DNA from: Leucoraja ocellata
Taxonomy: Eukaryota
DNA length: 64,000 nucleotides
Reading direction: 5' to 3'
NCBI GenBank assembly: GCA_036785375.1
Contig: JAWMAR010000006.1
Location: 3,472,001 to 3,536,000 of the forward strand
The number at the start of each line of letters is the position of its first letter. The stretch's first letter is position 1. Below, one piece after another: positions 4,405 through 28,332 of this stretch. The notes beneath the pieces were generated by a model, which had not been told where the DNA came from, searched no databases, and was given only the letters and a program-made list of their open reading frames with translations. Both the position numbers and the translations under genes were made by a program.

Positions 4405-4860
4405 TTCATAGAAACATAGAAAATAGGTGCAGGAGTAGGCCATTCGGCCCTTCGAGCCAGCACCACAATTCAATATGATCATGGCTGATCATCCAAAATC
4501 AGTACCCCATTCTGGCTTTTTCCCCATATCCCTTGATTCCCCGAGCCCTAAAAGCTAAATCTAACTCTCTCTTGAAAACATCCAATGAATTGGCCCCCAC
4601 TGTCTTCTGTGGCAGAGAATTCCACAGATTCACAACACTCTGGGTGAAAAAGGTTTTCCTCATCTCAGTCCTAAATGGCCTACCCCTTATTCTTAAACTG
4701 TGACCCCTAGTTCTGGACTCCCCCACCATTGGGAACATTTTTCTTGCATCTACCCTGTCCAATTCTCTAAGAATGTTATATGTTTCTAGGAGATTTCTCA
4801 TTCTTCTAAATTCCAGTGAATACATGTCCAAACGACCCATTCTTTCATCATATGTTTCCT
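4405..4860 (-). mobile_element. CR1-type LINE 3' fragment
   Basis: ORF 4499-4867 (YSLEFRRMR...RTRGHSLRIRG..FFTQSVVNLWNSLP) is the CR1 ORF2 C-terminus, followed by the 3' UTR with a (TTTCTATG)n tail. Confidence 0.88.
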
Positions 4861-5289
4861 TCCACATCCCAAAAATGTGGGGGTGGTGGGTCCATGAAAA
4901 TTTCCCCTAATGTGCAGGTGAGTGCCTTAATTTGGAGAGAATTGATGAGATTGAGAGAGAATAAATTGAGGAAGACACTGAGTGCTGGAGTAGCTCAGCA
5001 GGTCAGGCAGAATCTCTGGAGAGAAGGAATGGGTGACGTTTCGGTCGAGACCCTTCTTCAGACTAATATAAAAAATCAGAATCAGTCAGAATAAATTGAG
5101 ATTAGTGTAAATGTGTGCTTGCTGCTGGATGTAGACTTGATGGGCTGAAGGGTCCTTTTCTGTGGTAGACACAAAATGCTGGAGTAACTCAGCAGGACAG
5201 GCAGAATCTCTGGAGAGAAGGAATGGGTGACGTTTCGGGTCAAGACCCTTCTTCAGATCCATTTCTGTGCTGTATAAATCTCTGGCTCC

Positions 5290-6316
5290 AGGATCCTTTC
5301 AGATCACATGAAGCTCATCTTCATGACCAATTTCCATTCTGCACTCAAATTCACATGGACCTCCCAACCGTTTCTAGATCACACCGTCTCCATCACAGGA
5401 GACACCCTATTGACCAACATCTACTACAAGCCCACTGACCCCCATAGTTATCTAGACTCTACTTCTTCCCATCCTGCTTCCTGTAAAGACTCTATCCCCT
5501 GCTCTCAATTCCTCCGTCTCCACCGCATCTGCGCCCAGGATGAGGTTTTCCATACCAGGGCATCGGAGATGTCCTCATTCTTCAGGAAAAGGGGGTTCCC
5601 CTCTTCCAATATAGATGAGGCTCTCACTTGGGTCTCCTCGATATCCCGCAGCTCCGATCTTGCTCCCCCACCCCCCATTCATAACAAGAGCAGAATCCCC
5701 CTTGTCCTCACCTTCCACCCCATCAGCCGTTGCATACAGCATATAATCCTCCAACATTTCCGCCACCTCCAACGGGATCCCACTACTGGCCACATCCTCC
5801 CATCTCCACCCCTTTCTGCTTTCTGCAGACACCGTTCCCTCCACAACTCCCTGGTCAACGTCCCTTCCCACCCAAACCATCCCCTCCCAAGATACTTTCC
5901 CCTGCAACCACAGGAGATGCAACACCTGTCCCTTTACCTCCCCCCTCGACTACATCCAAGGACCCTGACAGTCTTTTCAGGTGAGGCAGAGGTTCACTTG
6001 CACCTCCTCCAACCTCATCTACTGTATCCGCTGTTCCAGGTGTCAACTGTACATCGGTGAGACCAAGCGCAGGCTCTGCGATCATTTCGCTAAACACCTC
6101 CTCTCAGTCTGCCCTAACCTTCCTGATCTCCCGGTTGCTCAGCACTTTAACTCCCCCTCCCATTTCCAAATTGACCTTTCTGTCCTGGGCCTCCTCCATT
6201 GTCAGAGTGAAGGGCCTGTTCCACTTAGGCGATTTTTCCGCGGACTGCCGGCAACTGTCAAGTTTGCGGCACTCGCCTGAAAAACCGGGAACTGGAACGG
6301 CGACTGTCAGAGTGGA

Positions 6317-6406
<90 letters not shown>

Positions 6407-7405
6407 CGCAAAGGCGGGGGTCAGGGAAAGCAGGGGAGCGCTGTCTGAAATTCACACGGTGCAAAGCCAAGGTGATACAGACACACACCGCGATGAACAG
6501 GAAGGTTAAAGCGGTTGGCATATTGTACGGTAAGTCCTTTAAAAGGGGGGGAAGAAGGAGGGGGGAGGGAGAAGGGGGGAGAAGAAGGGAGGGGGAGAAG
6601 AAGGGGAGGAAGAAGAAGAGGGGGGAGAAGAGGGGGGAAAAGAAGGGGGAGGGGAAGAAGGGGGGGGGGGGGGAGAAGAGGGGAGACACTTTTAAGAAGC
6701 CAGACAACTTTTAATAAGACAGAGATACACAGCTGTGAAGTTTGGCAGGCATTTAACATTACCGGTCGGTTATCCTTGGTTCTGAAAACTCGTGTTTACG
6801 TTTTTGATCCCCAATGAAAATGCCCGGTCAGCAAAGGTGATTAACTAAAACTATCTACGACTACCCATAACCACATGGCGACCCCACTACAACTGCACCT
6901 ACGGCTACGGGATTATCGATTTTCTCCATGGCGAGTAATTTTTGGTCGCGGACCATACTAAGGCCGCAACTAGTTCCCAAAATGCAGGAACTCCTCGCAA
7001 CCATGAAGGAGACTCACCAGCGAACATGTGGCGACCATGTGGCGATCATGAGGCGAGCACAGAGTCTCCTGCACTCGCCTAAAAAGTTGCCTAAGTGGGA
7101 AAGACCCTTGAGGCCCAGGGCAAATTAGAGGAACTGCACCTCAGATTTTGCTTCGGTAGCTTACACCCCAGCGGTATGAACATTGACTTCTCTAACTTCA
7201 AATAGTTCTTGCTTTCCCTCTCTCTCCATCCCCTCACTCTTCCCAATTCTCCCACCAGTCTTACTGTCTCCGACTACATTCTATCTCTGTCCTACCCACT
7301 CCCCTGACATCAGTCAGAAGAAGGGTCTCAACCCAAAACATCACCCCATTCCTTCTCTCCAGAGATGCTGCCTATCCCGCTGAGTTACTCCAGCATTTTG
7401 TGACT
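5290..7405 (+). mobile_element. Penelope-like retroelement, 5'-truncated, interrupted by a Harbinger-type insertion at 6211-7108
   Basis: RT thumb motifs (FLD...YYKPTD...YLD..SSHP...SIP.SQFLRL.RIC) and GIY-YIG (NLIYCIRCSRCQLYIGETKRRL) in ORFs 5308-6060 and 5981-6280. The element sequence resumes at 7109. Confidence 0.88.
6211..7108. mobile_element. Non-autonomous PIF/Harbinger-type DNA transposon containing (CA)n and purine-rich tracts
   Basis: Imperfect TIRs AGGGCCTGTTCCACTTAGGCGATTTTT / AAAAAGTTGCCTAAGTGGGAAAGACCCT, with a 3-bp TSD TGA (6208-6210 and 7109-7111). Removing it restores the host Penelope sequence cagagtgaggccc. Confidence 0.8.
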
Positions 7406-8016
7406 AGCAAGGATTGCTTCATCTCATGATGTGCACACCATCAACTGCCACTCCTGGCTTTATACAGAATGTTGTAGTCATTGGGAAGCCACATTAATCC
7501 ACAGTGAGGTTAGGACATCTGCTAGGATTACTTTGAAAATGGTTTGTTACACTGAACATACTGTGGCTGCTTAATGAAGAGATTGCAAAGATTAATGAAT
7601 TATTGTCACACAAATAATTATTGCCTTCAAGGGCATTCAACAGACAGATTTAGGGGGAATTCCAGTGAGGGAGGACAATGCATCTATCGTGGTCTCTCCG
7701 CTCCATACACATCTCCAGGTGGATTCTTGATACTTATTGATGGAAATAATATTTTAATATCAGTTCACCAAATTATCAATCAAAAATCAAACTTAATACA
7801 TTAACTTTATTGATAATCATTATTTAACGTGATGGAGTGCCAGAGAAGCTCATCTACCGCCTCCTTCTACACTATTTTGTTGATAAAGTTGGCGTTATAT
7901 TAATTTGATGATCGATTGTTTGTAAAACTGTCAGCATAGGCAGTCTTTGATTGTGCTAATTTGCATATGACGAATAAATACTCTTGAAATGCAGTTGGCG
8001 GGCATGGATTACTCAC

Positions 8017-8051
8017 CTCAGGATCTCCTTCCTTGTGAAAAAGGTGCAGTC
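8017..8051 (-). CDS. CIB3: CIB3 coding exon 2
   Basis: 35 bp exon, tttaaag|GACTGCACC...CTGAG|gtgagt, encoding DCTFFTRKEIL(R). FFTRKEI is CIB3-type rather than CIB2-type (FFNKKDI). Confidence 0.93.
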
Positions 8052-9628
8052 CTTTAAAATACAAATGTAAAAAAGCTGTTAAAATAAATTAACTGAAGGA
8101 TTGCAATGATGTTAATATGATAGATCTCATCCCTGTTAGGATGAAAGCTCTGTTAATGCTCAAATTGGATTCCCTCCAGATTCAGGGACAGATTCTTCCC
8201 GGCTGTTATCAGGCAACTGAACCATTCTATCAACAACTAGAGAGAAGTCCTGAACCACTATCTACCTCATTGGAGACGCTCGGATTATCATTAATCTGAC
8301 TTTATCTTGCACTAAAACGTTGTTCCCATTATCATGTATCTACATTGTGGATGGCTCAATTGTAATCATGTATTGTCATTTTGCTGACTAGTTATCATGC
8401 AACAAAAGCTTTCCACTGTACATGCAACAATAAACTATTCTTCCTCTCAGGAACTGAGCTCATTTACCCAAGGGTGGGAAAACAAAAGTTTCTCATTTCT
8501 CACTCTTCCAACAAAAGGTCAACCGGGGTAGGGCCAGTATTACCAAAGAAAGCTGGTGCATTGCGAGGTAGGTGAGATCTGTGGGAGCTCAAAGTTGGGG
8601 TGTTATGGCTTCTCACCGTGCTTTTAGCTGCATCTACTTGAAGTATCGCACGGTCCCTGCAACAACCTCTTTAAAGTAGATGCCACGAGAGAACAGCTAA
8701 TGAAACCATGGACCCCATCAGTGGGGGTGCCAGCATCTCATCACCCACAACTTCCTCTGACGTTCTCTTGCTAGGATCCTCCCAAAGTTGGGTGGCAATT
8801 AAACTATTATTTTCAGACAATTATTTACCTATTTGGTTTCATTCGTTTTCACACAAGGATATTTAATTTCCAGATATTCCTCCTACCTAGCGCAGGAGAG
8901 ATCGTAACTGATCGCGCAGTATTACGATACAATATGATAGAACTTTATTTATCAGGAAGGAAATTGTTCTGCCAACAGTCATAAAACACAACATGAAACA
9001 TGAAATTAAAGTGACGAGTGGAAAGTCCAGAAATGGGGATGTGCGATGACTGGGTGAGGGGGAGAGGGGGAGAGGGGGAGAGGGGGGGAGGAGAGTCAGT
9101 CTACCCCACAACAGAAGGGGGAGGAGTTGTACAGTTCAATAGCCATAGGGAAAAAGCATCACCTGTGGCGTTCTATTCTGCATTGTGGTGGAACCCGTCT
9201 GTTGCTGAAGGTGTTCCTCAGGTTGACCAGTGTGTCATGGAAGGGGTGAGCTGTATTGTCTAATCATGGACAGAATAATGGGATATTACAGAAGAGATCA
9301 ATACCAAACAGTGGCTGGGGATTGAAACTGGGGGAGATCAAACCTCATGGGCATTACAGGGAGATAAGTAAGAGAATAAGTAAATAAGGAATAAGTAAGA
9401 GACGGTGGCTCGAGTCGTTTTTAAAGGAGTGACAGTAACTTTGTGCGCGTTAGGGGAGAGAGTAAAATTACGAGTTTCTAGAAAGATCAGAAACGGGAGA
9501 ACTTTGCAGAATTTTCAAGCTCTCCTGTGATTTTGAACCAAACACATTTTGCTTCATAGTCGGGTGGTTTAGAACAGATGATGCTTGTCACATTTTCTGA
9601 CAGGAGTGCACCTGGACTGAGCTCCTAC

Positions 9629-9679
9629 CTGATACGCATCAAGCTGCTGCGCTGTGAAGACGGTCTGCTTGTTGCCCAT
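9629..9679 (-). CDS. CIB3: CIB3 coding exon 1
   Basis: aaacATG GGC AAC AAG...TAT CAG|gtagga. 51 bp encoding MGNKQTVFTAQQLDAYQ, with the CIB-family N-myristoylation start MGNKQT. Phases join exons 2 and 3 in frame. Confidence 0.94.
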
Positions 9680-9738
9680 GTTTGCCAGTCAGGGTGAACA
9701 TCAGGCTCTGCCCAACTCTCTCCTCCTCCACTCAATAC

Positions 9739-9745
9739 TTAAATA
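9739..9745 (-). promoter_or_regulatory. Candidate TATA-like box (TATTTAA) ~60 bp upstream of the CIB3 ATG
   Basis: Motif and position only. Confidence 0.3.
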
Positions 9746-11644
9746 TGAGGAGAGCTGATCTGGAGCCAGGCGGGAGGATCACATTGCTCTTTGCATCGGC
9801 CAGTTTATTGCTGAATAATAATGGGATCATTTCACCCATTCTCATGTAAAAGGCTATGAATAAAAAGAATGCGATCTGGTTGACCTCCAACAGGCCCTGC
9901 ACACACTCCTTTTTGTGCCACGGATGTGTTGACTTCCAGCTTATGTTACACACATTCACAGGCATGACAGCTAGACAGTAATATTCCAACAATATTCCAA
10001 TTTATTATTTATGAGCATCTGACATTAGCCATCTGTATACTACAAGCCCAGAGATTAAAACAGTCTGGAGCAGTTACTTTGATACTCTCTGGCCATAATG
10101 AGTTAATTAAGACAAAGATTACTCCAAATTTAGATATTTCATGTACAAATCAGAGGCTGTGAAACACACTGCTCACACTGACATTTGACACTGACATCCC
10201 TGTGCATGGCAGAGGTGTAATTTCCCATTCCCATTGGAGCAAATGTAAGAGAGGAATGGGGAGTATGCATTAGGAAGCATGCTGACACAAACAAACGGCC
10301 ACAGTACCAGTGGAACGTGCGCATAACAATGATGCCTGCTGGCATTTTGTGTTATTCATATGCTGAGTGGAAGTGTTAGGTGGAAAGTTACCAAGCAACT
10401 CCCTTATAGCATTTCCCTTACATAAGAAAAAATGTGTCTGTCCCGTTTAATTTTTATATTAGATCGCATTTTCCTTGTCATCGGCTAGGCTGAGGGAGCA
10501 CAGAGGGTAATATCCAGGGCAGTTCCACAGTCACACGAGGCACATATGCGAGCCAGAGGAGGGGTGAGGCATTGGCAAGCAGTTTCATGGACCAGTGCAG
10601 TTTTTTCATGTGTGAACCTGCAAGTTCAAGATTGTCACTGCGCAACATGGAGGTATTGTTCTGAGGCCTGCCAGCCTGTCACTGCCACACAGTGTCAAGG
10701 ATTAAAACATTTCAAAGTCCAAACATTGCTGAAAGTTCAACACAGGTCAATAGGACTGTCAAGAAAAGTTTCCTTCAATCGCTGGGGAATGGAATAGAAA
10801 AACAGGAAGGTCTTGGTAAAACTTTATGAAACATTGGTGAGGCCACAGGCGGCATACTGTGTGTAGTTAGACACAAAATGTTGGAGCAACTCATTGTGTG
10901 TCTATCTTACTGTCTGACAGTAAGAAATGTTTTCCCATGGCAGAGTTCCCATTCCCATTCCAAATGGAGCAAATGTGACAGAGGAACAGGGAAAATGCAT
11001 TAGGAGGCAGAATGGGTTGAACAGTGGTCAAGTTAGCTGTGGGAGTCAGTTAGCTTGTAGTGGATGTTAATAGCTAGTCTTTCTCTTGATATGGAAAGAG
11101 AAAGGGAAGCAACAAGTCAGACGCTGACCATATGAAGGTGAGAGTGGGATGGAAATAGACAACAGAAGAGACGGCAAAATGCTAGGATTTGGCGCAATAA
11201 TCAAACTGCAGGATTGAGAAACAGTGCTGGAGCCTGATATAGTGTCTCAGCCCAAATATTGTCCATCCCTCTGCTTCCACCGATGCTGTTTGGTCAGCTG
11301 TGTTCCTGCAGCAGTTTGTTTTTTTGCACTAAAGTAATGTAACTGTTGAATTCTGCATGGGTGCAGGTGGCTGCTCCAATTTAGCCAACAATGTACGGGA
11401 ATAGGAGTTGAGGAAGTGAAACAAAGACTGTTCCACATGTCACACAAGACAGACATTAGTTGGGCCCAAGTGTCTGCCCCTAACTGCACCTTTGATATGG
11501 AAGAAGTGGGTGTAGAAGAAAAAAATGTACAATTTGAGAACAAGATCAGCCAGGCCATGAGGCCTTGTTGAGTGTCTGCTCCTCGAAGACGCAAATATCC
11601 CTCAGATTCTCCAGAAGTGGGATGGAGTTGTAAAGGAATTGAAT

Positions 11645-12408
11645 AGGGAGGTTGCACGGCAGTCAAGGTCACGCAACGCCGTCTGGAGTACACGCGGTGA
11701 ATGTCAGGTAAGCACATACTATGGTTGCCAGTATAGTTGGCCATTCTTCTGTCCCAGCATCCAGACTCCACACTCTGGTTCCACACTCGCGGACCTCAGG
11801 CCGTCTGTCCCTGCGGTGGGGGGGGAAGGGTCGGTCGGTTCGGTGTGTCACCTACAGCGCGTGACAGTGCGGCTGCACAGGGGGAGACGGGGCTGTTTTC
11901 CAATTATTTACAGCACAAAAATGGTTCATTTCGGCGGTTTTTAACCTAGATGCAGGAAGATTGTTCCCGATGTTGGGGAAGTCCAGAACAAGGGGTCACA
12001 GTTTAAGGATAAGGGGGAAATCTTTTAGGACCGAGATGAGGAAAACATTTTTCACACAGTGGTGAATCTGTGAAATTCTCTGCCACAGAAGGTAGTTGAG
12101 GCCAGTTCATTGGCTATATTTAAGAGGGAGTTAGATGTGGCCCTTGTGGCTAAAGGGATCAGGGGGTATGGAGAGAAGGCAGGTACAGGATACTGAGTTG
12201 GATGATCAGCCATGATCATATTGAATGGCGGTGCAGGCTCGAAGGGCCGAATGGCCTACTCCTGCACCTATTTTCTATGTTTCTATGTAAGAAAGTACGC
12301 GTTTAATGCATTAACAGTGTATGCCGTAGGCTGTCATATCCTCCACATGGATTGAGCTGCTCCTTGCGTCACGCCCTTTGACCCGATGACCTTACCCGAT
12401 AACCCCCT
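11645..12408. mobile_element. THAP-associated TIR element (ISL2EU-like), interrupted by a CR1 3' fragment at ~11947-12288
   Basis: The left end AT|AGGGAGGTTGCACGGCAGTC matches the reverse complement of the 18574 end. The right end (12289-12408) matches the reverse complement of the 17653 end. 11895-11946 is the reversed THAP ORF start. Confidence 0.7.
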
Positions 12409-13137
12409 TATGTGCATGGTAAACCTGACCTGTTGGGACCAGTGAAAAGATCAAAGTGGTGGAGGGGAGGGGGCACAGAAATAACAGCGAAGGGACAGAA
12501 CCAAGTCCTGATCCCAAAACATTGTCCAGGGTATGGAATGACATTTCTGGTGGAGACCCTTCATCAGAACAGACGGCGGGGAGAAGCGGTCCTGGCCAGA
12601 GACCCTGGTGTTAGCCGCCCCGGCCCGGGCCCGGCCCAGCTTCTTCTCTTCCTCCGCTGACCGCCGGTAGCCTCCATGTTTCCCCATCAGCGGGCAGTGG
12701 CGCGCAAAGATCGTAGAGGGACAAGATAGACCACTCCTTCGAAATTCAATGGGCTGACGTGTAGTACGCAACGGAACGTCACGGCCGCCATTTGTTACAG
12801 CGACACGCGACTTCCGGTATTCCACCCGCTGTGATTCAAAGCAAAGATTATAGAGCTCCGCTATAATCTTTGATCCAAAGCAAAGATCCTCAAGTATCTT
12901 GTAGCGGGAACAGACCCCTCCTTTGTGTAGTTTCCCTTGCATTGTATTGCTTTAACACACACTGCAAAAAATTAAATTTAACGTATATATATTTAATATA
13001 TTTATATGAATGTGTGTCTGTGTGTGAGAGGCAAGTTAGAGATAATAGTTTATTCTCATGTATCAGAAGCTACTTTGATTTAAATAATCGCTATTAATTT
13101 ATTTGTCTTGTAAGATGATATACATAAACCATAAAGG

Positions 13138-13279
13138 NNNNNNNNNNNNNNNNNNNNNNNNNNNNNNNNNNNNNNNNNNNNNNNNNNNNNNNNNNNNNNN
13201 NNNNNNNNNNNNNNNNNNNNNNNNNNNNNNNNNNNNNNNNNNNNNNNNNNNNNNNNNNNNNNNNNNNNNNNNNNNNNNN
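13138..13279. other. Assembly gap (run of N) adjoining an (AT/AC)-rich microsatellite at 13280-13405
   Basis: N characters in the sequence. Confidence 0.99.
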
Positions 13280-13414
13280 ACACACATACATATGGATACA
13301 TTTATATGCATACATACACACATATAAACATATATATACATACATATATACACACATATACATATACATGCATATATATACACATACATATATATTTATA
13401 CATATGATTAACAT

Positions 13415-14950
13415 GTAGAGGAACCAACGAGAGAGCAGGCTATTTTAGACTGGGTATTGAGTAATGAGGAAGGGTTAGTTAGCAATCTTGTTGTACTGCC
13501 CCCTTGGGCAAGAGTGACCATAATATGGTTGAGTTCTTCATTAGGCAGGCAGTGACTAGTGGGGTACCGCAAGGCTCAGTGCTGGGACCCCAGCTATTTA
13601 CAATATATATTAATGATCTGGATGAGGGAATTGAAGGCAATATCTCCAAGTTTGCGGATGACACTAAGCTGGGGGACAGTGTTAGCTGTGAGGAGGATGC
13701 TAGGAGACTGCAAGGTGACTTGGATAGGCTGGGTGAGTGGGCAAATGTTTGGCAGATGCAGTATAATGTGGATAAATGTGAGGTTATCCATTTTGGTGGC
13801 AAAAACAGGAAAGCAGACTATTATCTAAATGGCGGCCGACTAGGAAAAGGGGAGATGCAGCGAGACCTGGGTGTCATGGTACACCAGTCATTGAAAGTAG
13901 GCATGCAGGTGCAGCAGGCAGTGAAGAAAGCGAATGGTATGTTAGCTTTCATAGCGAAAGGATTTGAGTATAGGAGCAGGGAGTTTCTACTGCAGTTGTA
14001 CAGGGTCTTGGTGAGACCACACCTGGAGTATTGCGTACAGTTTTGGTCTCCAAATCTGAGGAAGGACATTATTGCCATAGAGGGAGTGCAGAGAAGGTTC
14101 ACCAGACTGATTCCTGGGATGTCATAGAAACATAGAAACATAGAAATTAGGTGCAGGAGTAGGCCATTCGGCCCTTCGAGCCTGCACCGCCATTTAATAT
14201 GATCATGGCTGATCATCCAACTCAGTATCCCGTACCTGCCTTTTCTCCATACCCTCTGATCCCCTTGTCAGGACTGTCTTATGAAGAAAGACTGGATACA
14301 CTTGGTTTATACTCTCTAGAATTTAGGAGAATGAGAGGGGATCTTATAGAAACTTACAAAATTCTTAAGGGGTTGGACAGACTAGATGCAGGAAGATTGC
14401 TCCCGATGTTGGGGAAGTCCAGGACAAGGGGTCACAGCTTAAGGATAAGGGGGAAATCCTTTAAAACCGAGATGAGAAGAACCTTTTTCACACAGAGAGT
14501 GGTGAATCTCTGGAACTCTCTGCCGCAGAGGGTAGTCGAGGCCAGTTCATTGGCTATATTTAAGAGGGAGTTAGATGTGGCCCTTGTGGCTAAGGGGATC
14601 AGAGGGTATGGAGAGAAGGCAGGTACGGGATACTGAGTTGGATGATCAGCCATGATCATATTGAATGGCGGTGCAGGCTCGAAGGGCCGAATGGCCTACT
14701 CCTGCACCTAATTTCTATGTTTATATTATTTTCCAACGATCAATAGATTTACGATCAGTTCCTGTGGATTGGAGGATAGCTAATGCTATCCCACTTTTCA
14801 AGAAAGGAGCGAGAGAGAAAATGGGGAATTACAGACCAGTTAGCCTGACTTTGGTGGTGTGAAAGATGCTGGAGTCAATTATTAAAGATGTAATAATGGG
14901 GCATTTGGATAGCAGTAAAAGCATTAGTCCAAGTCAACATGGATTTATGA
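13415..14950 (+). mobile_element. CR1-type LINE ORF2 (RT to 3' end) with a nested inverted CR1 3' fragment at ~14124-14266
   Basis: ORF 13504-14127 has SGVPQGSVLGP..F..YINDL...SKFADDTKL, and ORF 14199-14636 continues to the C-terminus. The inserted piece is the reverse complement of the 3' tail at ~14600-14720. Confidence 0.92.
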
Positions 14951-15244
14951 TTTTACAATGCATTTAAGCCTCTCCCATTTTTATGAGATGAATTCCTGGA
15001 ATATGCAGGAAGTTTATTGTAACCTAGTGCTACTTGCCTGAACAATGGATGATATATCACTTAAATGCAATTGTTTTCAGTTGTGTGGAGAGACCTGTAT
15101 ATTGAAAATGTGTTTTGCCTCTAATATGTCAATTTACCTTAAATGTAGAAGAGCTTATTAAAATCTTCTTACAAAGACAATTAAGTATTTTCTATCTATC
15201 CTCTTTTGGACCCAAGGCATAGCAGAGCTGCCAACTCTCACGAA

Positions 15245-15308
15245 GAGGTAAGGGAGGGAGAGATGGAAGGGTGGGAGAGAGGGAAGGGAAGGAGATCGCG
15301 AAGAGAGG

Positions 15309-15342
<34 letters not shown>

Positions 15343-15510
15343 GAGAGAAGAGAGGGGAGCGAGAGATCGAGAGGAGGGGAGAGAGAGATCGAGAGAAGAG
15401 AGGGAGAAGGGGGGAGAGGGAGAAGGGGGAGAGGGAGAAGGGGAAAGGGGGGGACAGGGAGAAGGGGGACAGGGACAAGGGGGAGAGGGAGAAGGGGGAG
15501 AGGGAGAGTG
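15245..15510. repeat. (GA)n / G-A-rich low-complexity tract
   Basis: Direct observation. Confidence 0.9.
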
Positions 15511-16254
15511 GAACGATAGCACATTATAACGCGCAGCCGTCCCATTCCGACCAAAGATTATAGAGCAGAGCTCCACTAGTATCTTTGATTGCGGCCGCCG
15601 CCACCGAACCCCCCAACCCACCATTGCACCCAAAGATGATAGAGCAGAGTTATATAATATTTGATTGCACCCTTCTTCACGGCGGGCTTGTGATGTCTTG
15701 TATGCATGTGAGTGTTGTTTGCTATGTCCCTATGTTCGAGGAATATAACGGGTAACAGCCGCCCATTCTCGGACTCAAAAAATCTCCTGGTCACTGGACC
15801 TAATGTGTCCGCGGGCCATATTGTGCAGACTAATCCCTTACAAAACAAAACCAAAAACGTACAGAAGTGTTAAAATTGTCTTTATTATTGTGGTGAGTAA
15901 AGAACTATTAAAAATAAGTCTAATAACTTTCTAATGTACCGACTAATGTTTCCCAATGGCCGTTGATGGGAGAACAGAAAATACAATTTTCACGACAGAA
16001 TATCGACTGAAAATAATAAAAATATTTTCTCACCTTTCTTTTTTATTGGGGAACCTAAAGAATGACAGGTTGGGTCGTTTAGATTTACGATTAGAATACT
16101 TGATAGCAGAGCAGTGAGATGAAATTTAGATAAGGGCGCCATGACAGTGTGGGGGAAGCTCAATAAAATGCTTAACAATATGGCGTCGACGGTCACACAC
16201 GTCATACTACGCGTTTTTCGAGGAGTGGTCTATCTTGTCCCTCTACGATCTTTG

Positions 16255-16933
16255 GTGGCGCGGGTCACGTGCCGACGGAGTTGGGAGCGCGCGGGGTGTG
16301 AGGCCGCTCGGGGCCGGGAGCGCGCGGTCGGGTGAGGGCGCGGAGCAGAATCAGGCGGGGACGATCAGTCGGGTGAGGGCGCGCAGCTGGAGTCAGGCGG
16401 GGACGCGCAGCTGGAGTCAGGTGAGGGTGCGGAGCTGAGTCAGGCGGGGACGCGCAGCTGGAGTCAGGCGGGGGCGCGGAGCTGGAGTCAGGCGGGGGCG
16501 CGGAGCTGGAGTCAGGCGGGGGCGCGCAGCTGGAGTCAGGCGGGGACGCGCAGCTGGAGTCAGGTGAGGACGCGCAGCTGGAGTCAGGTGAGGGTGCGGA
16601 GCTGAGTCAGGCGGGGGCGCGCAGGATCAGGCCGCTCGGAAGCGGCGCAGGAGTTGAGTCGGGCCGGCGAGCGAGTGCGTGCAAAGCTCTATGATCTTTG
16701 GAGTGTGTGTCCGTCCGACCGTCCACAGCTCCGCGCCCTCCAGTTGCAGGCGGCCTTTGGCCCGTGTCCAGGGTGGGGTTGAGCTCGGTCCGGTCCGGTC
16801 CGGTCCGGTCATCCCCCACCGACCCCGTCTGTCGTCCATGTCCCGGAGCTCGGACATCCGTGAGTCCCCTCTCTTCGTTTGTAAATATGCTTTTGTCTTG
16901 TGATCACCGTGACAATGATTTGCCATCAGGAAG
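16255..16933 (+). promoter_or_regulatory. CTNS: CpG island: probable CTNS promoter and non-coding first exon
   Basis: Very GC/CpG-rich. CLEAR-like GTCACGTGCC at 16264-16273. Candidate donors cc|gtgagt (16860) and aag|gtaggg (16934). It is the nearest CpG island upstream of the ATG exon. Confidence 0.7.
16340..16632. repeat. GC-rich minisatellite, ~24-bp unit GCGCAGCTGGAGTCAGGCGGGGAC, about 11-12 variant copies
   Basis: Direct observation of tandem units. Confidence 0.92.
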
Positions 16934-17652: not shown

Positions 17653-18574
17653 AGGGGGTGTGCACGTAAGGTCCCCGGGCATAGGGCTTGACGCACGGAG
17701 CCGCTCAATCCATCTGGAGGACATCCGTAACTTCCGGTATATGTTATTAATGCAAGATATGCGTACTTTCCTACCTGTTAAAAACCGCCAAAATGTTACA
17801 TTTTTGCGCTGTAAAAAATTGTGGAAATCGGGGTAAGCGTGAGAGACATTTACCCAACTTCAGAATTCCAAAAGTGAAGCGAAATGAAGGTAAAGAGAAG
17901 CGAGAGCTGAAGGGAAGGGATGGGGAGGGGGGGCAACAACAGCTAAAGTGCTTGGCGAACATTGGCCGTGCAGATATCGGAATTGAAAATATTGGGAATT
18001 ATCGCGTTTGCTCACTGCATTTCATCAACAGTAAGGCATTATTTGTGGTTTTTCTTGATTCCTTTGCCGGTATCTAAAAAGTCTCAGAAGTGATCAATCT
18101 GGCTGTAAATTTTGCTTCAGAGGCGTTTTCTTTTTGTATGTAAAAACCCACTTGAGAACCATGGGCGATTTTAAAATCTTACAGTCAGATTTATCGCCTC
18201 TTAAACTTTTTAGATGCCAATGGAATCAAGAAAAAACACAAATAATGGGCCTTAGTTGATGAAATGCAGTGAGCAAACGACCAATATTTGCCATGCACTC
18301 TGTCTGTTGTTGTCCCTTCAGCTCTCGCTTCTATCTACGGTCATTTCTCCTCACTTTTGGAATTCTGAAGTAGGCTAAATGTCTCTCACGCTTATCCCGA
18401 TTTCCATAATTATTTACAGTGCAAAAATTGACAATTTTGGCGGGTTTTAACGGGCCCACTACGCTGGGAAGAATGGTCAGTGCTTACCTGCAGTTCATCG
18501 CGTGTACTCCAGTTGGCGTAGTGTAGCAACAGTCCGGGTCATTGGACGTGACCCGACTGCAGTGAAACCTCCCT
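17653..18574. mobile_element. Fold-back THAP-carrying TIR element (ISL2EU-like) inserted in an older LINE 3' end
   Basis: ORF 17793-18077 MLHFCAVKNC...FRIP...YRVCSLHF carries the THAP C2CH signature. A degenerate reversed copy lies at ~18200-18455. Ends are AGGG.../...CCCT|AT. Confidence 0.75.
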
Positions 18575-18794
18575 ATAGAAGTGTGAAAACGCACACCACC
18601 GGATTCAGACACAATATCTTCCCAGCTGTTTTCAGGCAACTGAATCATCCTACCACAACCAGAGAGCACTACTGAACTACTATCTACCTCGGACTATCCG
18701 TAATCGGACTTCACCTTGCACTAAATGTTATTTCCTTATCATGGATCTTAACACTGTAAATGGCTCGATTGTAATCATGTATTGTCTTTCTGCT

Positions 18795-19010: not shown

Positions 19011-21123
19011 TATTGTCTTTCTGCTGACTGGTTAGCACGCAACAAAAGCTTTTCACTGTATCCGGGGTACACGTGACAATAAACTAAACTGAACTGACAG
19101 ATGCTGTCAAACAGAGTTCCTGAGGCACTCTGTGTTTTGCTGGTGTTGATGAATAGTTAGCCAGCACACCCACTAAACCCACTATCAGTACTCCACTCCA
19201 TGACGGCTTGACACAATTACCCGGCCTTGTGGACTTGACTCATGACATTTCCAGAGTTTACTAATTTACTTCCATTACTGGGGGAAACCCACAGGGGAAA
19301 GGTTACATAAACTTGTTGGAAACAAATTTGTGAGGAGAGATAAACTTAAGAGACAGAGATACATGGAAATGCAGATGCTCGTTACCAAAACAAAATGCAC
19401 AAAGTGCTTGTGTAATTCAATTGATCAGGCAGCATCTTTGGAGCACATGGACTGGTGTCATTTTGGCTCCGTTTCCATCTGCAGACTTAGAAGGATCCCG
19501 GACCGAAACATTGCTAATCCATGACCTCCTGGGATGTTGCCAGGCCTGTTAAATTACTCATGCACTTTATGTTTTTTGACTGGTAGCATAAAAGACATTG
19601 CACCGGAGGCGTTGAAAATAAGTGGGGGGGGGGGGAGGGGGGAAGATGTTTGTTGACAGACTGGGTTGGAGAGACCAAGGGGATCGCTAATGTGGACCGG
19701 TAAAGGTGGGTGAGAGCAGAAATGTGGGAAAGTGAAAGAATGGTGTTAAAAATCCACACAACTATGATGGAGAGGAATTATTGGTTCAGTGGAAATATTG
19801 TTGCTGGATGTGGTATTATCCAAATAGATGCAAAGTAGATGTGGTATTGAAAGCAAGGTAGTGGAAAAGAAGTATAGTTAAGTTACAGTAAAACTGATTG
19901 CACTGCCAGGCTATCTTCCCCTCTCCACTCCTTTCTGCTTTCCACAGGGACCACTCTCTTGATGACTTCTTGGTCTGCTCATCCCTTCCCATCCCCCAAC
20001 ACCTTCCCCAGGAAATGCAGGAGGTGCACCGCTTATTCCAACACCTCCTCCCTCACCACCATCCAGCGACCTTAGCAACCCTTCCAAGTGCGGCAAAGAT
20101 TCATATGCTCTTCCTACAATATCATCTACTGCATTCAGTCCCTGTTTGAAAGACAGAATGTCCCGTCACATACCTGGGAACATATTGCTAGATGTTTGTA
20201 TCAAATTTAGAAGCACCCTGCCATTGATGTTGTGGGAGACCTGCTGAGTGGTTTACAGCACAGCCCACCATCACTACTCTCGAGGGTAATAATGCTGACT
20301 AGTGATGTCACGACCTGTAAATCAATTTAAAAGTGCACATTTTAAAATCAAGCTGCGCTATTTTCAGTTATAAAACATAATGGTGGTAATAAGGATATAA
20401 ATTTGCAGCATATTTAAAACAAACCTTGATTACTGTCAGTACGTCTTTTTACATGTTATAAGTAGATGAAAGAGAATTTAAATTGTATTTGAAAATAAGT
20501 AATGGAGGGGGCGGGGCGAGGAGAGGGAAGGGGGAGGGGTCACATTTTAAAATAACGATTGCTTTTTCAAACTGCTGGTTTTATCTTGCCTAATTTAAAA
20601 CTATTTTAAACTGATAATGTTGGGGACTACTTACTCATGCAGTCACAAGAAATCAGGCACATTTTTCCCCTGAGAATGCATCTTGGCCAGAGTATAAATG
20701 GGAAAATAGATCACTTGAATTTTAAGGCAAAGTGTCTGTTAACAGCTATTGAACAAGGCAAGTAAATGGAGTTAAACAGATCCGTCATAAACTCACACAG
20801 TGGTGATAGGGGACAGACTGAGGGCTGAATGTCACAGCCTTGTGCCAATGCTGATTTCTTCGTTGAGATTGCCAGTCAAATTTGAAAGTACTGATAGTTT
20901 CGTAAAACCCAAAGACAGAAATTAAAGGAAAACTTTGCTCTATAGAACAAATCATATCTTGTTTTATGGAATATTATAGATCTGAATTAAGAATTCAATT
21001 TTGCTTGCAGAGACCATCAGTCATGGAGCTATAAAGCATGGAAACGGGCCCTTCGGCCCACCCTGTCCATGCCAACCAAATTTGCGAAGTGAGCTAGTCC
21101 CATTACCCTGCATTTTGCTCTTA

Positions 21124-22706
21124 CAGTGCCCTCCATAATGTTTGGGACAAAGACCCATTATTTATTTGCCTCTGTACTCCACAATTTGAGCTTTGTAATA
21201 GAAAAAAAAATCACATGTGGTTAAAGTGCACATTGTCAGATTTTAATAAAGGGTATTTTTATACATTTTGGTTTCACCATGTAGACATTACAGCAGTGGT
21301 TATACCCCTCATTTCAGGGCACCATAATGTTTGGGACACAGCAATGTCATGTAAATTAAAGTATTTACTGTATGTTTAGTATGTTGCATATCCTTGCATG
21401 CAATGACTGCTTGAAGTATGCGATTCATGGACATCACCAGTTGCTGGGTGTCTTCTCTGGTGATGCTCTGCCAGGCCTGTATTGCAGCCATCTTTAGCTT
21501 ATGCTTGTTTTGGGGGCCGGTCCCATTCAGTTTTCTCTTCAGCATATAAATGGCATGTTCTATTGGTTCAGTTCCGGGATTAACTTGGCCACCCAAGAAT
21601 TGACTTTTTTAGCTTTCAAAAACTCCTTTGTTGCTTGAGCAGTATGTTTGGGATCATTGGCTTACTAGAATGAACTGCCGGACAATGAGTTTTGAGGCAT
21701 TTGTTTGAACTTGAGCAGATAGGATGTGTCTATACACTTCAGAATTCATGATGCTACCACCATCAGCAGTTGTATCATTCATAAGTGTGTTTCACAGATG
21801 AGGTGATATGCTTTGGATCTTGGGCAGTTCCTTGTCTCCTCCATACTTTGCTCTTGCCATCACTCTGATATAAGTTAATCTTCATCTCATCTGTCCACAA
21901 GATCTTTTTCTAGAACTGTGATTGCTCTTTTAAGTACTTATTGGCAAATTGTAATCTGGCCATCCTATTTTTGCGGCTAACCAGCGGTTTGCATCTTGCA
22001 GTGTAGCCTCTGTATTTCTGTTCATGAAGTCTTCAGCGGACAGCGGTCATTGACAAATCCACACCTGACTCCTGAAGAATGTTGGACTGGTGTTTGGGGA
22101 TTTTTCTTTATTATGGAGAGAATTCTTCTGTCATCAGCTGTGGAGGTCTTCCTTGGCCTGCCAGTCCCTTTGTGATTAGTAGGCTCAACAGTGCTCTCTT
22201 TCTTCTTAATAATGTTCCTAACATTTGATTTGGGTAGTCTAAGGTTTGGCTGATGTCTCTAACAGTTGTATTTTTGTTTCTTAGTCTCATAATGGCTTCT
22301 TTGACTTTCATTAGCACAACTTTGGTCCTCATGTTGATAAACAGCAATAAAAGTTTCCAAAGGTGATGGAAAGATTGGAAGAAAGACTAGGTGCTGAGAG
22401 CTCTCTTATACCTGCATTAAGGAGGCAATTAAACACACCTGAGCAATTACAAACACCTGTGTAGCCATGTGTCCCAAACATTATAGAGCGCTGAAATTTG
22501 GTGGGGATGACGACTATATATAAACTCTGCTGTAATTTCTACATGGTGAAACCAAAATGTATAAAAATACCCTTTAATAAAATCTGTCAACATGCACTTT
22601 AATCAAATGTGATTTTTTTTTTCCCTACTACAAATCTCAAATTATGGAGTACAGAGGCAATTAAATAAATGACGGGTCTATGTCCCAAACATTATGGAGG
22701 GCACTG
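21124..22706 (-). mobile_element. Tc1-family transposon, near full length, degenerate transposase
   Basis: TA|CAGTGCCCTCCATAATGTTTGGGACA...TGTCCCAAACATTATGGAGGGCACTG long TIRs with an internal direct repeat. Transposase pieces in ORFs 22111-22347 (N-terminal HTH) and 21309-21596 (PIEH..LKRKL...AWQSI...LV.SM..LQAVI). Confidence 0.9.
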
Positions 22707-23083: not shown

Positions 23084-23147
23084 ATGAAACTGTGTATAAT
23101 GCAGTTGGTTCCTGTCTGCTGTTTGTTCACACTCGCAGTACAAGGCC
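23084..23147 (+). CDS. CTNS: CTNS first coding exon (signal peptide)
   Basis: Acceptor tctag|(23069), agcATG AAA CTG..., donor C|gtaagt. Encodes the hydrophobic leader MKLCIMQLVPVCCLFTLAVQG. Phase 1, as in human CTNS. Confidence 0.8.
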
Positions 23148-23772
23148 GTAAGTATACAGAACGACCCAAATAGTTTGTCATGGTGTCTATTATGCATTCT
23201 GCCTACTTTATAGAAATCCTTCAGTAAAATCATGGCTGCTTCTGCGCCTCAAACCCATTTACCAATGTCCATATCCCTCATTTCCTTTACCATCCAAAAA
23301 TCTGATCTTGCCTTTGATGTACATTTGTTCGGCATATTCATAGTTCTCAGGAGTTTCAAAGTTTCCCAGTCCCCATATTTTTTCCCATCCCTGTTTGAAC
23401 ACCTTGAGTCTCCAGTTAAAGAAAATAGACTTGCAGCATATTGTGAATCAAGCTTGTCAATCCTTTTGGTAATTAGTTACATTTCAGTGAAACTACCTGT
23501 TCTTCTATACCTCAGATGAGAAAAGGCAAGACATGCTCAACAACTCCTTATGCATTCAAATACATCTCGATCCAGGAAGCAATATTCTGCAGTCAAACTG
23601 GCAGACTCTTTATTGCCCTCCTGATATGTGAGATGCATCACAGCATACATTCAATTGCCCATTTACAAACTCTTTCACTTCAGATTCACTCCTTTGCAGC
23701 TCTTTATAGCCATGTTGTTATGCTGATTCCTATTACAGAGGTAGAAAGTCAGTTATCTCTGTTTGTCCACAG

Positions 23773-23851
23773 AAACTACTGTGACACTTAAAGCACCAAA
23801 ATTTGTTGGTCTAGAAATTGGAAGTCCTCGAAACATCAGCGTTACTCCAAG
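23773..23851 (+). CDS. CTNS: CTNS coding exon 2
   Basis: ccacag|...ccaag|gtaggt. 79 bp, same as human c.62-140. (Q)TTVTLKAPKFVGLEIGSPRNISVTP aligns with [25 protein letters not shown]. Confidence 0.88.
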
Positions 23852-25310
23852 GTAGGTGCAGTTTGAGGTAATGCTCAGGCAAGCGGAGCACCTAATTGGT
23901 GATTTTGCGCACAGGTCTTATTGCACTGGGGTGCTTATGACATCCAGGGAAGAACATCCGAACTGCAGTTCAAGGCTAACTCAGTATTCAGTTAATTATG
24001 TCCTATTTGTAGGTTATCCCAATAAAGCCACACTGTAGGAAGGATATGATTGTGCTGGAGATGAGATGTTGCCTGGGTAGCAAGATGTTTTGGGGAAAGA
24101 TTGGATAGAGTCATAATATCATACAACATATAAACAAGCCACTTGGCCTGCCAACCAGTGGGCTACCATCCATATTAATCCCATTTTCCTATACTTAGCC
24201 CATAGCTTTCTGTGCATAGGCAATTCATGTGTTCAGAGAACATAGACAGTACAGCCCATAATGTTTGTGTCGAACATGATGCCAAGTGAAACTGATCACA
24301 TTTACCTGTACATGATCCATATCCTTCTATTCCCTGTACTTCAATGTGCCTATCCAAAAGCCTCTTAAATGCCACTATCATATCTGCCTCCACTACCACC
24401 CTGGCAGCACGCTCCAGGCCCTCACCTCTCTCTACGTTAAAAAAACTTGCCCCGCACATCTCCAAGGGTTCCTGCACTCTGCCCTATTTATGTGTAGGAA
24501 AGAACTGCAGATTCTGGTTTAAACCGAAGATAGACACAAAATGCTGGAGTAATTTAGCGGGACAGGCAGCATCTCTGGAGAGAAGGAATGGATGACGTTT
24601 TGGGTCAAAACCCTTCTTCAGTCTCAAGAAGGGCCTCAACCCAAAACGTCACCCATACCTTCTCTCCAGAGATGCTGCCTGTCCCGTTGAGTTACTCCAG
24701 CATTTTTTGTCCATCTTTTGCCCTATCTACACCAGTCATCATTTTATAATCCTTAATCATGTCCTCTTAACTTTCTCTACTCGAGGAAAAACAGACCTAG
24801 CCTCTCCAACCTCTCCTCAAAACTGAAATGCTCTACCCCAGGCAACATCCTGGTGAATCTCCTATGTTCCCCTCCCGATCCACCCTTCCTCAGCCCCTTT
24901 TCCCAACCTAAAACTACTCTCCACACTGTCAATAAATCTGCCAATATTCATGTAATCTACAATTTTCATGATCATCGATCCTGCATCCACATCATTCATC
25001 CCTCCTTTCAAGAGTCAAGAGAGAGTCAAGAGTCAATTTAATTGTCATTTGGACCCCTAGAGGTCCAAACGAAATCAAGGGTCCCCACACTGATCTGTGG
25101 AGAGCATCATGAGTCACAGGTATCCAACTGCATAAACAACTCTCACCACCAAGCCAGTTTTAGATCAAACTTGCTGCTATGTCTCCTCAAATCACAAAAC
25201 TTTGGTTGTATTCAGATATCCTGAGGGTTTAAAAGGTGCTACATAAATGTAGATTGTTATTTATCACTGTGACGAATGTTTAGAAATGCCCTGATCTGCT
25301 CTTTCCTCAG

Positions 25311-25395
25311 TGAACCTCTGCAGGAAATGTTATTTGTTACATTTAATGTGACATTCTCCTCCAAACAGGCTTCAGTTGTTGAACTTCCAAAAAAT
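25311..25395 (+). CDS. CTNS: CTNS coding exon 3
   Basis: cctcag|...aaat|gtaagt. 85 bp (human c.141-225). Encodes EPLQEMLFVTFNVTFSSKQASVVELPKN. Confidence 0.9.
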
Positions 25396-26846
25396 GTAAG
25401 TAATGACAGAATTTTCAAACTCTGCTCAATGTTCCATTTTAATTGGTTCTTTATTTACCTGGGAGATTTTTATGAGATGCAAATCATGAGCATGATATAC
25501 TGGAAACACAAATCTTCTTTCGTGTGGAGTGCACAGCCTAAAATTGTTGGACAACTTGTTCTATTTGATTTTCCGTTTGTGCACGTTGATTGCATTAGTC
25601 AAAACAGGGCGGACCACGTGAAGGTTGCAATCTTCCACCCCGAAACACAAATAAGCTGGCATCTCTTAACAACGTAGAGAAGTGGAGTCATAGAGTTCTA
25701 CAGAACGGAATCAGACCCTTTGGCCAATCGTTCCATGCTGACAAACTTCCCTACCAGAGTCAGTCCCATTTGCCTGCATTTGGCCCATATCCCCAAAAAT
25801 CTTTTCTATCCCTATACCTGTGCAATATCTTTCAAATATTGTAACCGTACCCACCTCTGCCCTTTCCTCTTCATTGACTCTCCACAAGAAACAAGCAGCG
25901 ATGCTTATCACCAAATGTCGATTTTGCCTCCAACTCGAGTCCCTGTAAAAGTGCGTTCTGATCTTTAATGATTAGAATTCAGTAATGAGTGTGTCATTAG
26001 AATATTTTTTCACATGCAGCAATTCTTAGGAATGTGACATACCTGTGTGATGTGCTTTCACTGACAAATTTTATGTAATCCTAAAACTTTAAACTGTGAA
26101 AAATCAAAGTAATTGCCTAATTGTGCTGCAGAGATGGTGGCTAGATTGATATAATCTATAAAAGTTTGCAAGGTTTTGGAGAGGAATTGAGGGTGGAAGA
26201 CTGCTAATGCAACACCATTCCACAAGAAAATGTTGCTTTGTTGTTCGGGTTATACTTTGTGGATAGCTGCAACTATGTGATTGATCACCCAATGAGAAAC
26301 ATAGACAGTCAGAACCTTTTTCCCAGGATGGAAAAATCAAATACTAGAGGGTATAGGTTTAAAGTGAGAGAAGCATAGTTTAAAGGAGATGTGCAAGGGG
26401 GCAATCTTTTTACACAGAGGGTGATGAGTGCCTGGAACGTGCTTCTGAGAGTAGTGATTGCATAGAGACTTTTGCATAGGTATTTGGATATGTAGCGAAT
26501 GGAGGGATTTGGATTATGTGCAGCTAAAGGGGCCGAGCTTAAGTAGGCATCATGTTTGGCACAGACATAACATATAAGATTGTTTGAAACATATAAGATT
26601 ATTAAGGGCTTGGACACACTAGAGGCAGGAAACATGTTCCCGATGTTGGGCGAGTCCAGAACCAGGGGCCACAGTTTAAGAATAAGGAGTAAGCCATTTA
26701 GAACGGAGACGAGGAAACACTTTTTCTCACAGAGAGTTGTGAGTCTGTGGCATTCTCTGCCTCAGAGGGCGGTGGAGGCAGGTTCTCTTGTTGCTCCTCT
26801 CCAGAAATATTATAAATATTAACCTTTGTGTGCTTTATTTGAACAG

Positions 26847-26935: not shown

Positions 26936-26968
<33 letters not shown>

Positions 26969-28299: not shown

Positions 28300-28332
<33 letters not shown>

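Follow-up and report, generated by a model that had tools for sequence, protein, structure and literature searches.

P elements transpose by means of a 17-nt staggered cut, generate an 8-bp target-site duplication (TSD), prefer promoters and hop locally (PMC7776569). It is on account of this 17-nt stagger that excision of the Drosophila element leaves stubs of the terminal inverted repeat (TIR) at the junction; 28 of the 63 P junctions tallied from Table 1 of PMC2895639, a count that omits three isolates with flank deletions, measure 30-37 nt. Insect P TIRs span 27-32 bp, and a single P family, that of the BuT5/repleta group, has TSDs of both 8 and 9 bp (PMC3698922). In vertebrates, it is from zebrafish that mobile P-like elements have been described, THAP9 being elsewhere a single immobile gene, and the genomic targets of THAP9 are given as an open question (PMC7776569); the zebrafish transposase, zfTHAP9, excised but did not integrate, leaving larger deletions at the donor (PMC10983969). 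An 8-bp TSD also defines the hAT superfamily, a preference for 5' gene regions has been suggested for the hAT element Tol2 (PMC2874221), and hAT cutting proceeds with a hairpin in the flanking DNA (PMC5499845), from which we infer that no TIR stubs should be expected on the donor. As for cartilaginous fish, no paper on their P elements was found outside subscription journals, repeat databases may well hold automatic 'DNA/P' annotations, the supplement to a genome paper on cartilaginous fish mentions neither P nor THAP9 in 12 files (one scanned file apart), and P is not named in the available part of the PMC4350176 text.

The element described here probably represents a non-autonomous, internally deleted DNA transposon of the P (THAP-transposase) superfamily in the skate Leucoraja ocellata; all coordinates are positions in the window, i.e. 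the 64-kb stretch of skate DNA that was analysed. A previous sequence-only reading had reported a perfect 34-bp TIR and an exact 8-bp TSD, and both are confirmed: 12705-12738 (plus strand, the putative 3' end) is the reverse complement of 16221-16254 (minus strand, the putative 5' end) at 34/34 positions, and GTGGCGCG occupies both 12697-12704 and 16255-16262 (8/8). By chance, an inverted repeat of such quality would be expected ~1e-10 times in 64 kb, and the TSD match ~1e-4 times. The TIR pairing extends to 39/40 with one gap, and weak inverted similarity reaches out to ~95 nt, with a global score attained by 0.1% of 2000 shuffles. A subterminal inverted motif stands at unequal distances from the two ends, 81 nt from the left (12786-12801, plus strand) and 69 nt from the right (16170-16185, minus strand), the local match having a P of ~0.013 in 2000 shuffles; its left copy contains what we take to be a YY1-like word. 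The motif and the 34-bp TIR are compatible with P, for which a TIR of ~13-32 bp accompanied by unequally spaced subterminal inverted repeats is the rule, yet they are not specific to it. Even with up to 10 mismatches allowed, the 64-kb window contains no third TIR copy. A prokaryotic origin was rejected, as 25 nt of the TIR gave 0 matches in GTDB genomes and the right arm had no match among plasmids; the five Rfam matches, all far under gathering scores, carry no meaning. The perfect ends had also been taken for those of a young insertion, a claim for which the data supply only a bound, 0 differences over 42 sites being equivalent to a pairwise divergence below 6.9% (~7%).

The element lies 6.8 kb upstream of the intact coding sequence of skate CTNS, a real gene whose ten coding exons run from 23084 to 38076 on the plus strand. 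GC-rich DNA is present on both flanks as formerly proposed, but it is lopsided, with 136 bp on the left (GC 0.68, CpG observed/expected 0.72) and 638 bp on the right (GC 0.70, CpG observed/expected 1.0). The right flank corresponds to a host CpG island (16263-16900, plus strand), putatively the CTNS promoter with a non-coding exon 1, which contains a 24-bp tandem array at 16377-16624 and a candidate splice donor at 16860. An E-box, GTCACGTG (16264-16271, plus strand; one of four in the window by motif scan), which we take to be a CLEAR-like lysosomal promoter motif, begins 2 nt from the TSD. While CTNS itself is certain from its exons, the promoter label follows from this island being the closest one on the upstream side of coding exon 1 and from the E-box adjoining the TSD, and on these sequence grounds the island holding the element is likely the CTNS promoter. 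A head-to-head SHPK gene, the arrangement with CTNS seen in human, was sought and rejected, since DNA to the left of the element showed no SHPK motif and no credible Pfam match in 117 of the 162 left-side ORFs, the remainder mostly lying in retroelements.

The proposed length of ~3.55 kb agrees with the 3550 bp assembled, a count that includes a 142-N assembly gap (13138-13279) hiding the true length and content; an AT microsatellite then runs to ~13405. Since the two TIRs stand on opposite sides of this gap, one might suspect that the assembly is faulty here, or that the gap bridges ends from two unrelated elements; but each TIR is bordered by one and the same 8-mer, with CpG-rich host DNA carrying on beyond it left and right, which a misjoin would not yield, and we regard this explanation as very improbable. 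The interior further comprises a GA-rich simple repeat (15244-15507) and a nested CR1 cargo (13404-14950, plus strand; RVT_1 E 8.8e-12). The CR1 content had been recognized before, as a single, later insertion; it consists instead of three or four nested pieces, namely older pieces with a frameshift (~13404-13540) and with a stop (14727-14950), a younger 5'-truncated CR1 with open frames (~13541-14726) and an inverted CR1 3' end of 135 nt with a 5-bp duplication (14130-14266). Its lateness is doubtful too, in that the oldest pieces are interrupted by a stop and a frameshift whereas the element ends are perfect, so that part of the cargo may be older than the element's jump.

More revealing as to the mode of transposition are four head-to-head stubs of 19-36 nt that resemble the TIR start, each between direct repeats of 8-9 bp, three of them inside the element and one in the candidate host promoter 428 bp away. 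FP1 (12834-12880) has 31 nt of stubs (12842-12872; 14+17) between 8-bp repeats matching at 7/8; FP2 (15544-15595) has 36 nt (15552-15587; 17+2+17) and 8-bp repeats at 6/8; FP3 (15623-15671) has 33 nt (15631-15663; 17, filler and ~12) and 8-bp repeats at 8/8; and FP4 (16673-16709), in host DNA, has 19 nt (16682-16700; 5+14) and 9-bp repeats at 8/9. Directly after the right repeat of FP1 there may be a second, damaged stub (12881-12901, plus strand), which begins with the same 8 nt as the TIR and has no duplicated flank. No stub exceeds 19 nt per side, and this anatomy fits the Drosophila P excision junctions of Table 1 of PMC2895639. Loosely defined stub pairs number 47 in the 64 kb, four of which have flanks matching at 6/8 or better, three of these four inside the element; 150 shuffles under the same criterion gave a mean of 0.18 and a maximum of 2. 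At a strict threshold only two pairs occur, both of them inside the element and with duplicated flanks, whereas 150 shuffles gave 0. A scan run without knowledge of the TIR returned 14 matches, FP1, FP3 and FP4 among them; its background was high, with 11 other matches in the real window compared to 0-1 in shuffles. Two further stub-like matches were discarded, that at 22475 as part of a Tc1-like element and that at 48130 as an AT-rich chance occurrence. Judged by their sequence, the stubs in and beside the element look like scars of P-type cutting. If FP1-FP4 are footprints, they retain TIR stubs, which a hAT-type footprint, free of TIR sequence, would not.

The internal stubs may, however, owe their similarity to shared ancestry or to a structural role. 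The 14-mer of FP4 matches the outer TIR at 13/14, both mismatches in FP4 being CpG transitions, whereas the left stubs of FP1 and FP2 match it more weakly, at 12/14; since FP4 is closer to the outer TIR than the internal stubs are, the latter would derive from a sister family. Another possibility is that the outer element is P-like and FP4 the only true footprint, FP1-FP3 being one ancestral scar or structural palindrome (a binding site or decoy end) copied internally. In keeping with this, the flank repeats of FP1-FP3 all start with AT(T/C) in the same orientation, an alignment of FP2 with FP3, flanks included, spans 51 nt at 76%, the left flank of FP3 matches the right flank of FP2 at 6/8, as well as FP2's own pair does, and the left sides of FP2 and FP3 share 19 nt rather than 17, i.e. 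two extra bases. Copying would predict otherwise for FP1 and FP3, where the last five flank bases agree within each and differ between them (the flanks match at 7/8 and 8/8 within, and at 3/8 and 4/8 across). The internal flanks differ at 3/24 sites against 0/42 at the outer ends (P 0.044). We hold copying to be unlikely, while granting it appreciable weight. It is compatible with membership in P and would alter only the account of repeated self-targeting.

A trace of the transposase itself may survive 129 nt inside the right end, where a custom THAP HMM picked up, weakly, the N-terminal part of a decayed first exon of a THAP-domain gene (16033-16125, minus strand). It has lost the second Cys, is without an ATG and ends at a GTGAG donor; its score (E 0.005 in a set of 1266 pieces; 15.5 bits when run alone; a 24-residue match) exceeds the best match of all 13 decoy windows, and it is a high-ranking atlas lead. 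The position of this first exon would make the right end the 5' end. Pfam had no match for the piece, PDB came back empty, and a weak homologue search gave three candidates, none significant. The former statement that no transposase is recognizable holds in Pfam and gives way to a weak THAP first-exon remnant under the custom HMM. Among 68 element-overlapping ORFs, a set that omits gap-spanning and most CR1-internal ORFs, Pfam matched only RVT_1 and, as noise, MASE2, with no catalytic domain; 18 stop-read-through frames gave nothing better than E 0.046, and an RNase H DDE core with a GTP-binding insertion was found in neither set. THAP is not specific to P: a neighbouring repeat family carries it, and its relatives are HTH/DDE_Tnp_4 transposases (HTH_Tnp_4 in 4 of the 24 scanned, two of them also with DDE_Tnp_4; a P domain in 0/24). 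A word-based search for these neighbouring repeats was empty. They were rejected as the autonomous partner, having different termini and no DNA similarity to the element, and on the same grounds membership in PIF/Harbinger-ISL2EU, the group of these repeats, which has AGGG-type termini and 2-3-bp TSDs, was rejected as well.

A non-autonomous hAT element, THAP-bearing or Buster/Tip100-like for instance, whose palindromes would be subterminal repeats inherent to its structure or would stem from abortive gap repair, has to be weighed at this point. THAP-bearing hAT-derived proteins exist, one of which shares a similar N-terminus and first-intron position, and a Spin-doc-type C2H2 zinc finger, a type linked to hAT, is hinted at on the strand that also bears the THAP exon (15070-15245, minus strand; Pfam PF18658, E 0.12 and 0.068). 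This trace leans toward hAT if it points anywhere; it scores level with clear false matches of the same Pfam runs, gains nothing from PDB (empty) or from frameshift read-through, and may be due to chance. BED finger, hAT catalytic and dimerisation domains were not found in the element frames. The 8-bp TSD and a possible 5'-gene preference (PMC2874221) suit hAT, as does its occurrence in all vertebrate lineages (PMC4350176); the perfect 34-bp TIR exceeds the quoted, admittedly soft, range of 5-27 bp (PMC2874221), and flank-hairpin cutting should leave a donor free of TIR (our inference from PMC5499845). The limit of 19 nt per stub and the presence of FP4 in host DNA are left unexplained by it. 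We regard hAT as improbable. Slightly more so is some other or unnamed cut-and-paste group that combines an 8-bp TSD with a long staggered cut and converges on P: the TIR is unlike that of Pdre2, the THAP piece is without homologue in the weak search, and there is no transposase for placement in a tree, but we know of no other superfamily with such a long staggered cut. Besides, the combination of THAP, an 8-bp TSD and ~17-nt stubs is that of P (PMC7776569).

P is favoured because of the footprint-shaped TIR stubs with duplicated flanks of their own, and because of the THAP exon trace, neither of which the earlier reading had noted. The earlier P-like call was probably right, though not for the reasons offered, since TSD, TIR and CA termini fit hAT equally; CA termini occur in hAT too. 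P-type TSDs measure 7-9 bp, with 8 bp in canonical P and Pdre, and here the TSD agrees at 8/8 and the footprint flanks are 8, 8, 8 and 9 bp long. The element would descend from a gene for a THAP transposase, oriented along the minus strand with its start at the right end, and exon 1 would be all of that gene that can still be recognized. Transposase supplied in trans would have cut flush at the 3' ends and ~17 nt inside on the 5' strands, and the element would have entered an open, CpG-rich site by way of an 8-bp stagger, 2 nt from the E-box of the presumed CTNS promoter. The 19-36-nt stubs would be donor-site scars where a sister element inserted, with an 8-9-bp duplication, and then left, end joining having fused two single-stranded tails of up to ~17 nt. 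FP4 would imply that the CTNS promoter was struck at least twice, and FP1-FP3 that the CpG-rich, promoter-like arms of the element lineage were themselves targets before the present jump.

These observations hint at a P-type transposon jumping in cartilaginous fish. The wider proposal, namely that skates had a recently mobile, integration-competent P family with ends unrelated to zebrafish Pdre and a Drosophila-type ~17-nt stagger in a vertebrate germ line, which repeatedly struck CpG-island promoters and its own arms, is tentative and falls just short of an even chance. Were it true, the 19-36-nt scars would preserve, throughout the genome and independently of any transposase, a fossil signature of P/THAP9 chemistry, and the CTNS promoter would record either a local hop of ~430 bp or a hot spot of recurrent insertion. 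Real scars would mean that the 17-nt cut has operated in the germ line of a vertebrate. They would also supply a simple string, duplication-stub-stub-duplication, by which former P activity and its choice of targets could be mapped in whatever genome is at hand, and would make skate genomes a place to seek a vertebrate P transposase that is still integrating. An insertion 2 nt from the E-box of the putative promoter of a lysosomal gene is, moreover, a testable regulatory variant.

Compared with described systems, the skate element shares with non-autonomous hAT elements the 8-bp TSD, a short TIR and the possible 5'-gene preference, and differs from them in that hAT has TIRs of 5-27 bp and a BED finger (PMC2874221) and a flank-hairpin cleavage from which TIR stubs are not expected (PMC5499845); its 34-bp TIR is above that range and near the 27-32 bp of insect P (PMC3698922). 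Like BuT5 of the repleta group (Drosophila buzzatii, D. mojavensis), it is non-coding, putatively P-mobilised and recognized from its ends, whereas BuT5 has a 3-bp TIR with a 16-17-bp sub-TIR, measures ~1 kb and has an identified partner transposase; the 8- and 9-bp TSDs of that family make the 9-bp duplication of FP4 tolerable for P (PMC3698922). With zebrafish Pdre2/zfTHAP9 it has in common a vertebrate host, an 8-bp TSD, a TIR with subterminal repeats and internal deletion, whereas the Pdre2 TIR is 13 bp long and of other sequence (by eye, agreement within the first five bases is limited to the terminal CA and base four), its 12-bp subterminal repeats lie ~400 bp in, and no 17-nt stubs are known to us from its excision (PMC10983969). 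From the P element of Drosophila melanogaster it departs in a TIR unrelated beyond CA, in having no transposase in its assembled part, in an apparent intron that splits the THAP region, and in that its putative scars belong to a natural genome, where they are fixed, and sit inside the element, with a 9-bp repeat at FP4. It nevertheless shares with that element the 8-bp TSD, the ~30-bp TIR starting with CA, the unequally spaced subterminal motif, the likely promoter insertion and possibly the THAP N-terminus (PMC7776569), together with putative TSD-stub-stub-TSD junctions of 19-36 nt (PMC2895639).

The ends of the element bear out the perfect inverted repeat and exact duplication that the sequence-only reading had described: the terminal inverted repeats (TIRs; 12705-12738 and 16221-16254) agree at 34 of 34 bases and the same 8-mer lies on both flanks (12697-12704 and 16255-16262), an arrangement whose chance occurrence is negligible, so that the feature, nominally 3.55 kb long with a 142-N gap inside, is real and an artefact is scarcely credible. 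The TIR similarity is prolonged to 39 of 40 bases with one gap, and the arms remain loosely alike in inverted orientation to ~95 nt (P 0.001, 2000 shuffles), a stretch that includes a subterminal inverted motif (12786-12801 and 16170-16185; 81 and 69 nt from the respective element ends); no further TIR copy was found within the 64-kb window. The outer ends differ at 0 of 42 sites (upper bound 6.9%), and within that bound the insertion may be called young; mutation rates in chondrichthyans are low, and "young" may therefore still mean millions of years.

The evidence that carries our interpretation comes from four short structures, putative excision footprints FP1 to FP4, in which paired TIR-like starts stand face to face between direct repeats: FP1 (12842-12872, 31 nt, flanks agreeing at 7/8), FP2 (15552-15587, 36 nt, 6/8), FP3 (15631-15663, 33 nt, 8/8) and FP4 (16682-16700, 19 nt, 8/9). 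A TIR-guided scan returned 47 loose stub pairs in 64 kb, four of which have 8-bp flanks matching at 6/8 or better, namely FP1-FP3 and one AT-rich site, against a mean of 0.18 and a maximum of 2 in 150 shuffled windows. A TIR-blind scan gave 14 matches, comprising FP1, FP3 and FP4, a cluster of six inside a single microsatellite and five more besides, and 20 shuffles gave 0-1, the real background thus lying above the shuffled one; among the 14, only FP1, FP3 and FP4 begin with the first five bases of the TIR. Because FP4 sits in host DNA, 428 bp away from the right TIR, it is excluded as a structural component of the element. The 14-mer of FP4 matches the outer TIR at 13/14, and both of its mismatches are CpG transitions. 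FP1-FP3 have a common sister terminus whose left and right versions diverge after base 12, FP2 parsing as 17+2+17 and FP1 as 14+17.

The internal flanks differ at 3 of 24 positions as compared with 0 of 42 at the outer ends (P 0.044), so FP1-FP3 probably predate the present insertion. For FP4 no significant difference in age emerged (P 0.12); it may mark the site from which the element made a 430-bp hop, or else an earlier hit. Each of the three internal flank pairs starts AT(T/C), in the same orientation. FP2 and FP3 are alike beyond the stubs, with 19 nt in common on the left, and there may consequently have been two internal events rather than three, or a structural repeat; the flanks of FP1 and FP3 vary in step within each site, and this speaks for separate target sites. 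A further TIR-start-like stretch at 12881-12901, adjoining the right repeat of FP1 and devoid of its own duplication, is possibly a re-insertion at the same site.

According to PMC7776569, cleavage of the 5' strand by P transposase falls 17 bp inside the TIR; the enzyme generates 8-bp duplications, prefers promoters and hops locally. PMC2895639 (Table 1) depicts end-joined P donor sites as duplication, tail of at most 17 nt, optional filler, tail and duplication, and in our tally of that table, which omits three isolates with flank deletions, 28 of 63 P junction isolates measure 30-37 nt. Conversely, in hAT, MULE and Transib the hairpin arises on the DNA flanking the element (PMC5499845), so that their footprints should hold no TIR. 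Since the stubs fit P donor junctions, a P-type reading is favored, and we consider it likely that the element belongs to the P superfamily, as a new member from a skate. It would be a non-autonomous element mobilized in trans, the scars being left by earlier visits of its relatives; its CpG-rich arms (o/e 1.41 and 1.25), carrying what we take to be promoter-type words, would themselves be targets for a promoter-seeking transposase.

The earlier statement that no transposase is recognizable holds as far as Pfam, which finds none in the element, but a weak coding trace is present. An HMM derived from 41 THAP proteins matches a 31-codon minus-strand frame (16125-16033; E 0.005 among 1266 pieces) that terminates at a GTGAG donor and reaches 12.3 bits in the window scan, versus 3.7-11.1 for the best decoys of 12 shuffled windows and 8.0 for the reversed window. 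The atlas gives THAP at 0.80, as a lead only, and a homologue search returned no significant match; with moderate confidence, we read the frame as a decayed THAP exon 1. A Spin-doc zinc finger, which if real would presumably favor hAT, scores E 0.12 and 0.068 at 15245-15070, no better than evident false matches alongside, and given the TIR-bearing stubs we regard assignment to hAT as improbable. Counting against the P-type reading, THAP also occurs outside P: THAP-carrying repeats at 11645-12412 (minus), 17655-18575, 54.0-54.4 kb and 57.06-57.6 kb have relatives that are HTH_Tnp_4/DDE_Tnp_4 transposases and are therefore probably PIF/Harbinger-ISL2EU. These neighbors are non-autonomous: their termini are AGGG and their flanks mostly AT, and the left arm encodes THAP and in the 17.7-kb copy is folded back on both arms. 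That the element belongs to some other group is slightly less probable still than hAT. Two of the neighboring copies lie on either side of the CTNS promoter, inverted relative to each other.

Nested CR1 makes up ~1.55 kb of the element. Open frames persist in the younger piece, which is broken by an inverted 135-nt CR1 3' end (14130-14266; 132/135 identical to the end of its host CR1, in reverse to it, with a 5-bp duplication). The older pieces bear a stop and a frameshift whereas the outer ends show 0/42 differences, and judging from these two lesions the older CR1 may have travelled with the element, although the sequence-only reading had spoken of a later CR1 insertion.

Intact cystinosin is encoded by ten exons (23084-38076). 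Among the best 120 of 638 matches to the last exon, the top named one of near-full coverage comes from the skate Rhinoraja longicauda (88% over 96%); sawfish and devil ray follow at 83%, a ranking that points to a skate as the source organism. The attribution of the insertion site to the CTNS promoter is now a good inference: a splice acceptor preceding the first coding exon implies a non-coding exon upstream, and the nearest CpG island (16.0-17.1 kb) contains an E-box at 16264, 2 nt beyond the duplication, which we assume to be a CLEAR-type motif. Within that island, a 24-bp GC-rich tandem array (16377-16624; 10.4 copies, 88% matches) is a candidate promoter or 5'UTR repeat of variable length. 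Left of the element the island measures 136 bp only; Pfam on 117 of 162 left-side ORFs and a motif search found no head-to-head gene there, and no SHPK-like exon head-to-head with CTNS was found in 1-12700, unlike the arrangement in human. A minus-strand ATG in good context at ~12679 opens a short frame only, of no known family. Minus-strand exons from 52.3 kb (45.4-52.3 kb), tail-to-tail with CTNS and presumably TAX1BP3-like as judged from motifs, have their own CpG island (51.7-52.7 kb), where no CAAAG-type footprint was found. The CTNS 5' intron holds an element (about 21123-22706), presumably Tc1/mariner-like; its inverted ends are long, and its terminus recurs inside it. Elsewhere, a sub-threshold MTABC_N Pfam match (9735-10001, minus; E 0.0035) is probably due to chance, and the frames at 60.4-60.8 kb and 62.7-64.0 kb are repetitive, the same short peptide units coming back several times, which suggests tandem or satellite arrays with an inverted pair (60487-60654/63779-63946).

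Searches of the open-access literature turned up no description of P elements from cartilaginous fish and none of P footprints occurring naturally in the genome of a vertebrate. The footprints turn a guess based on TIR and duplication into a sharp genome-wide test. Comparison with the zebrafish P-like elements, Pdre, led us to reject the element as a Pdre. On every feature open to indirect examination it behaves as P elements do, its membership of the P superfamily being putative.
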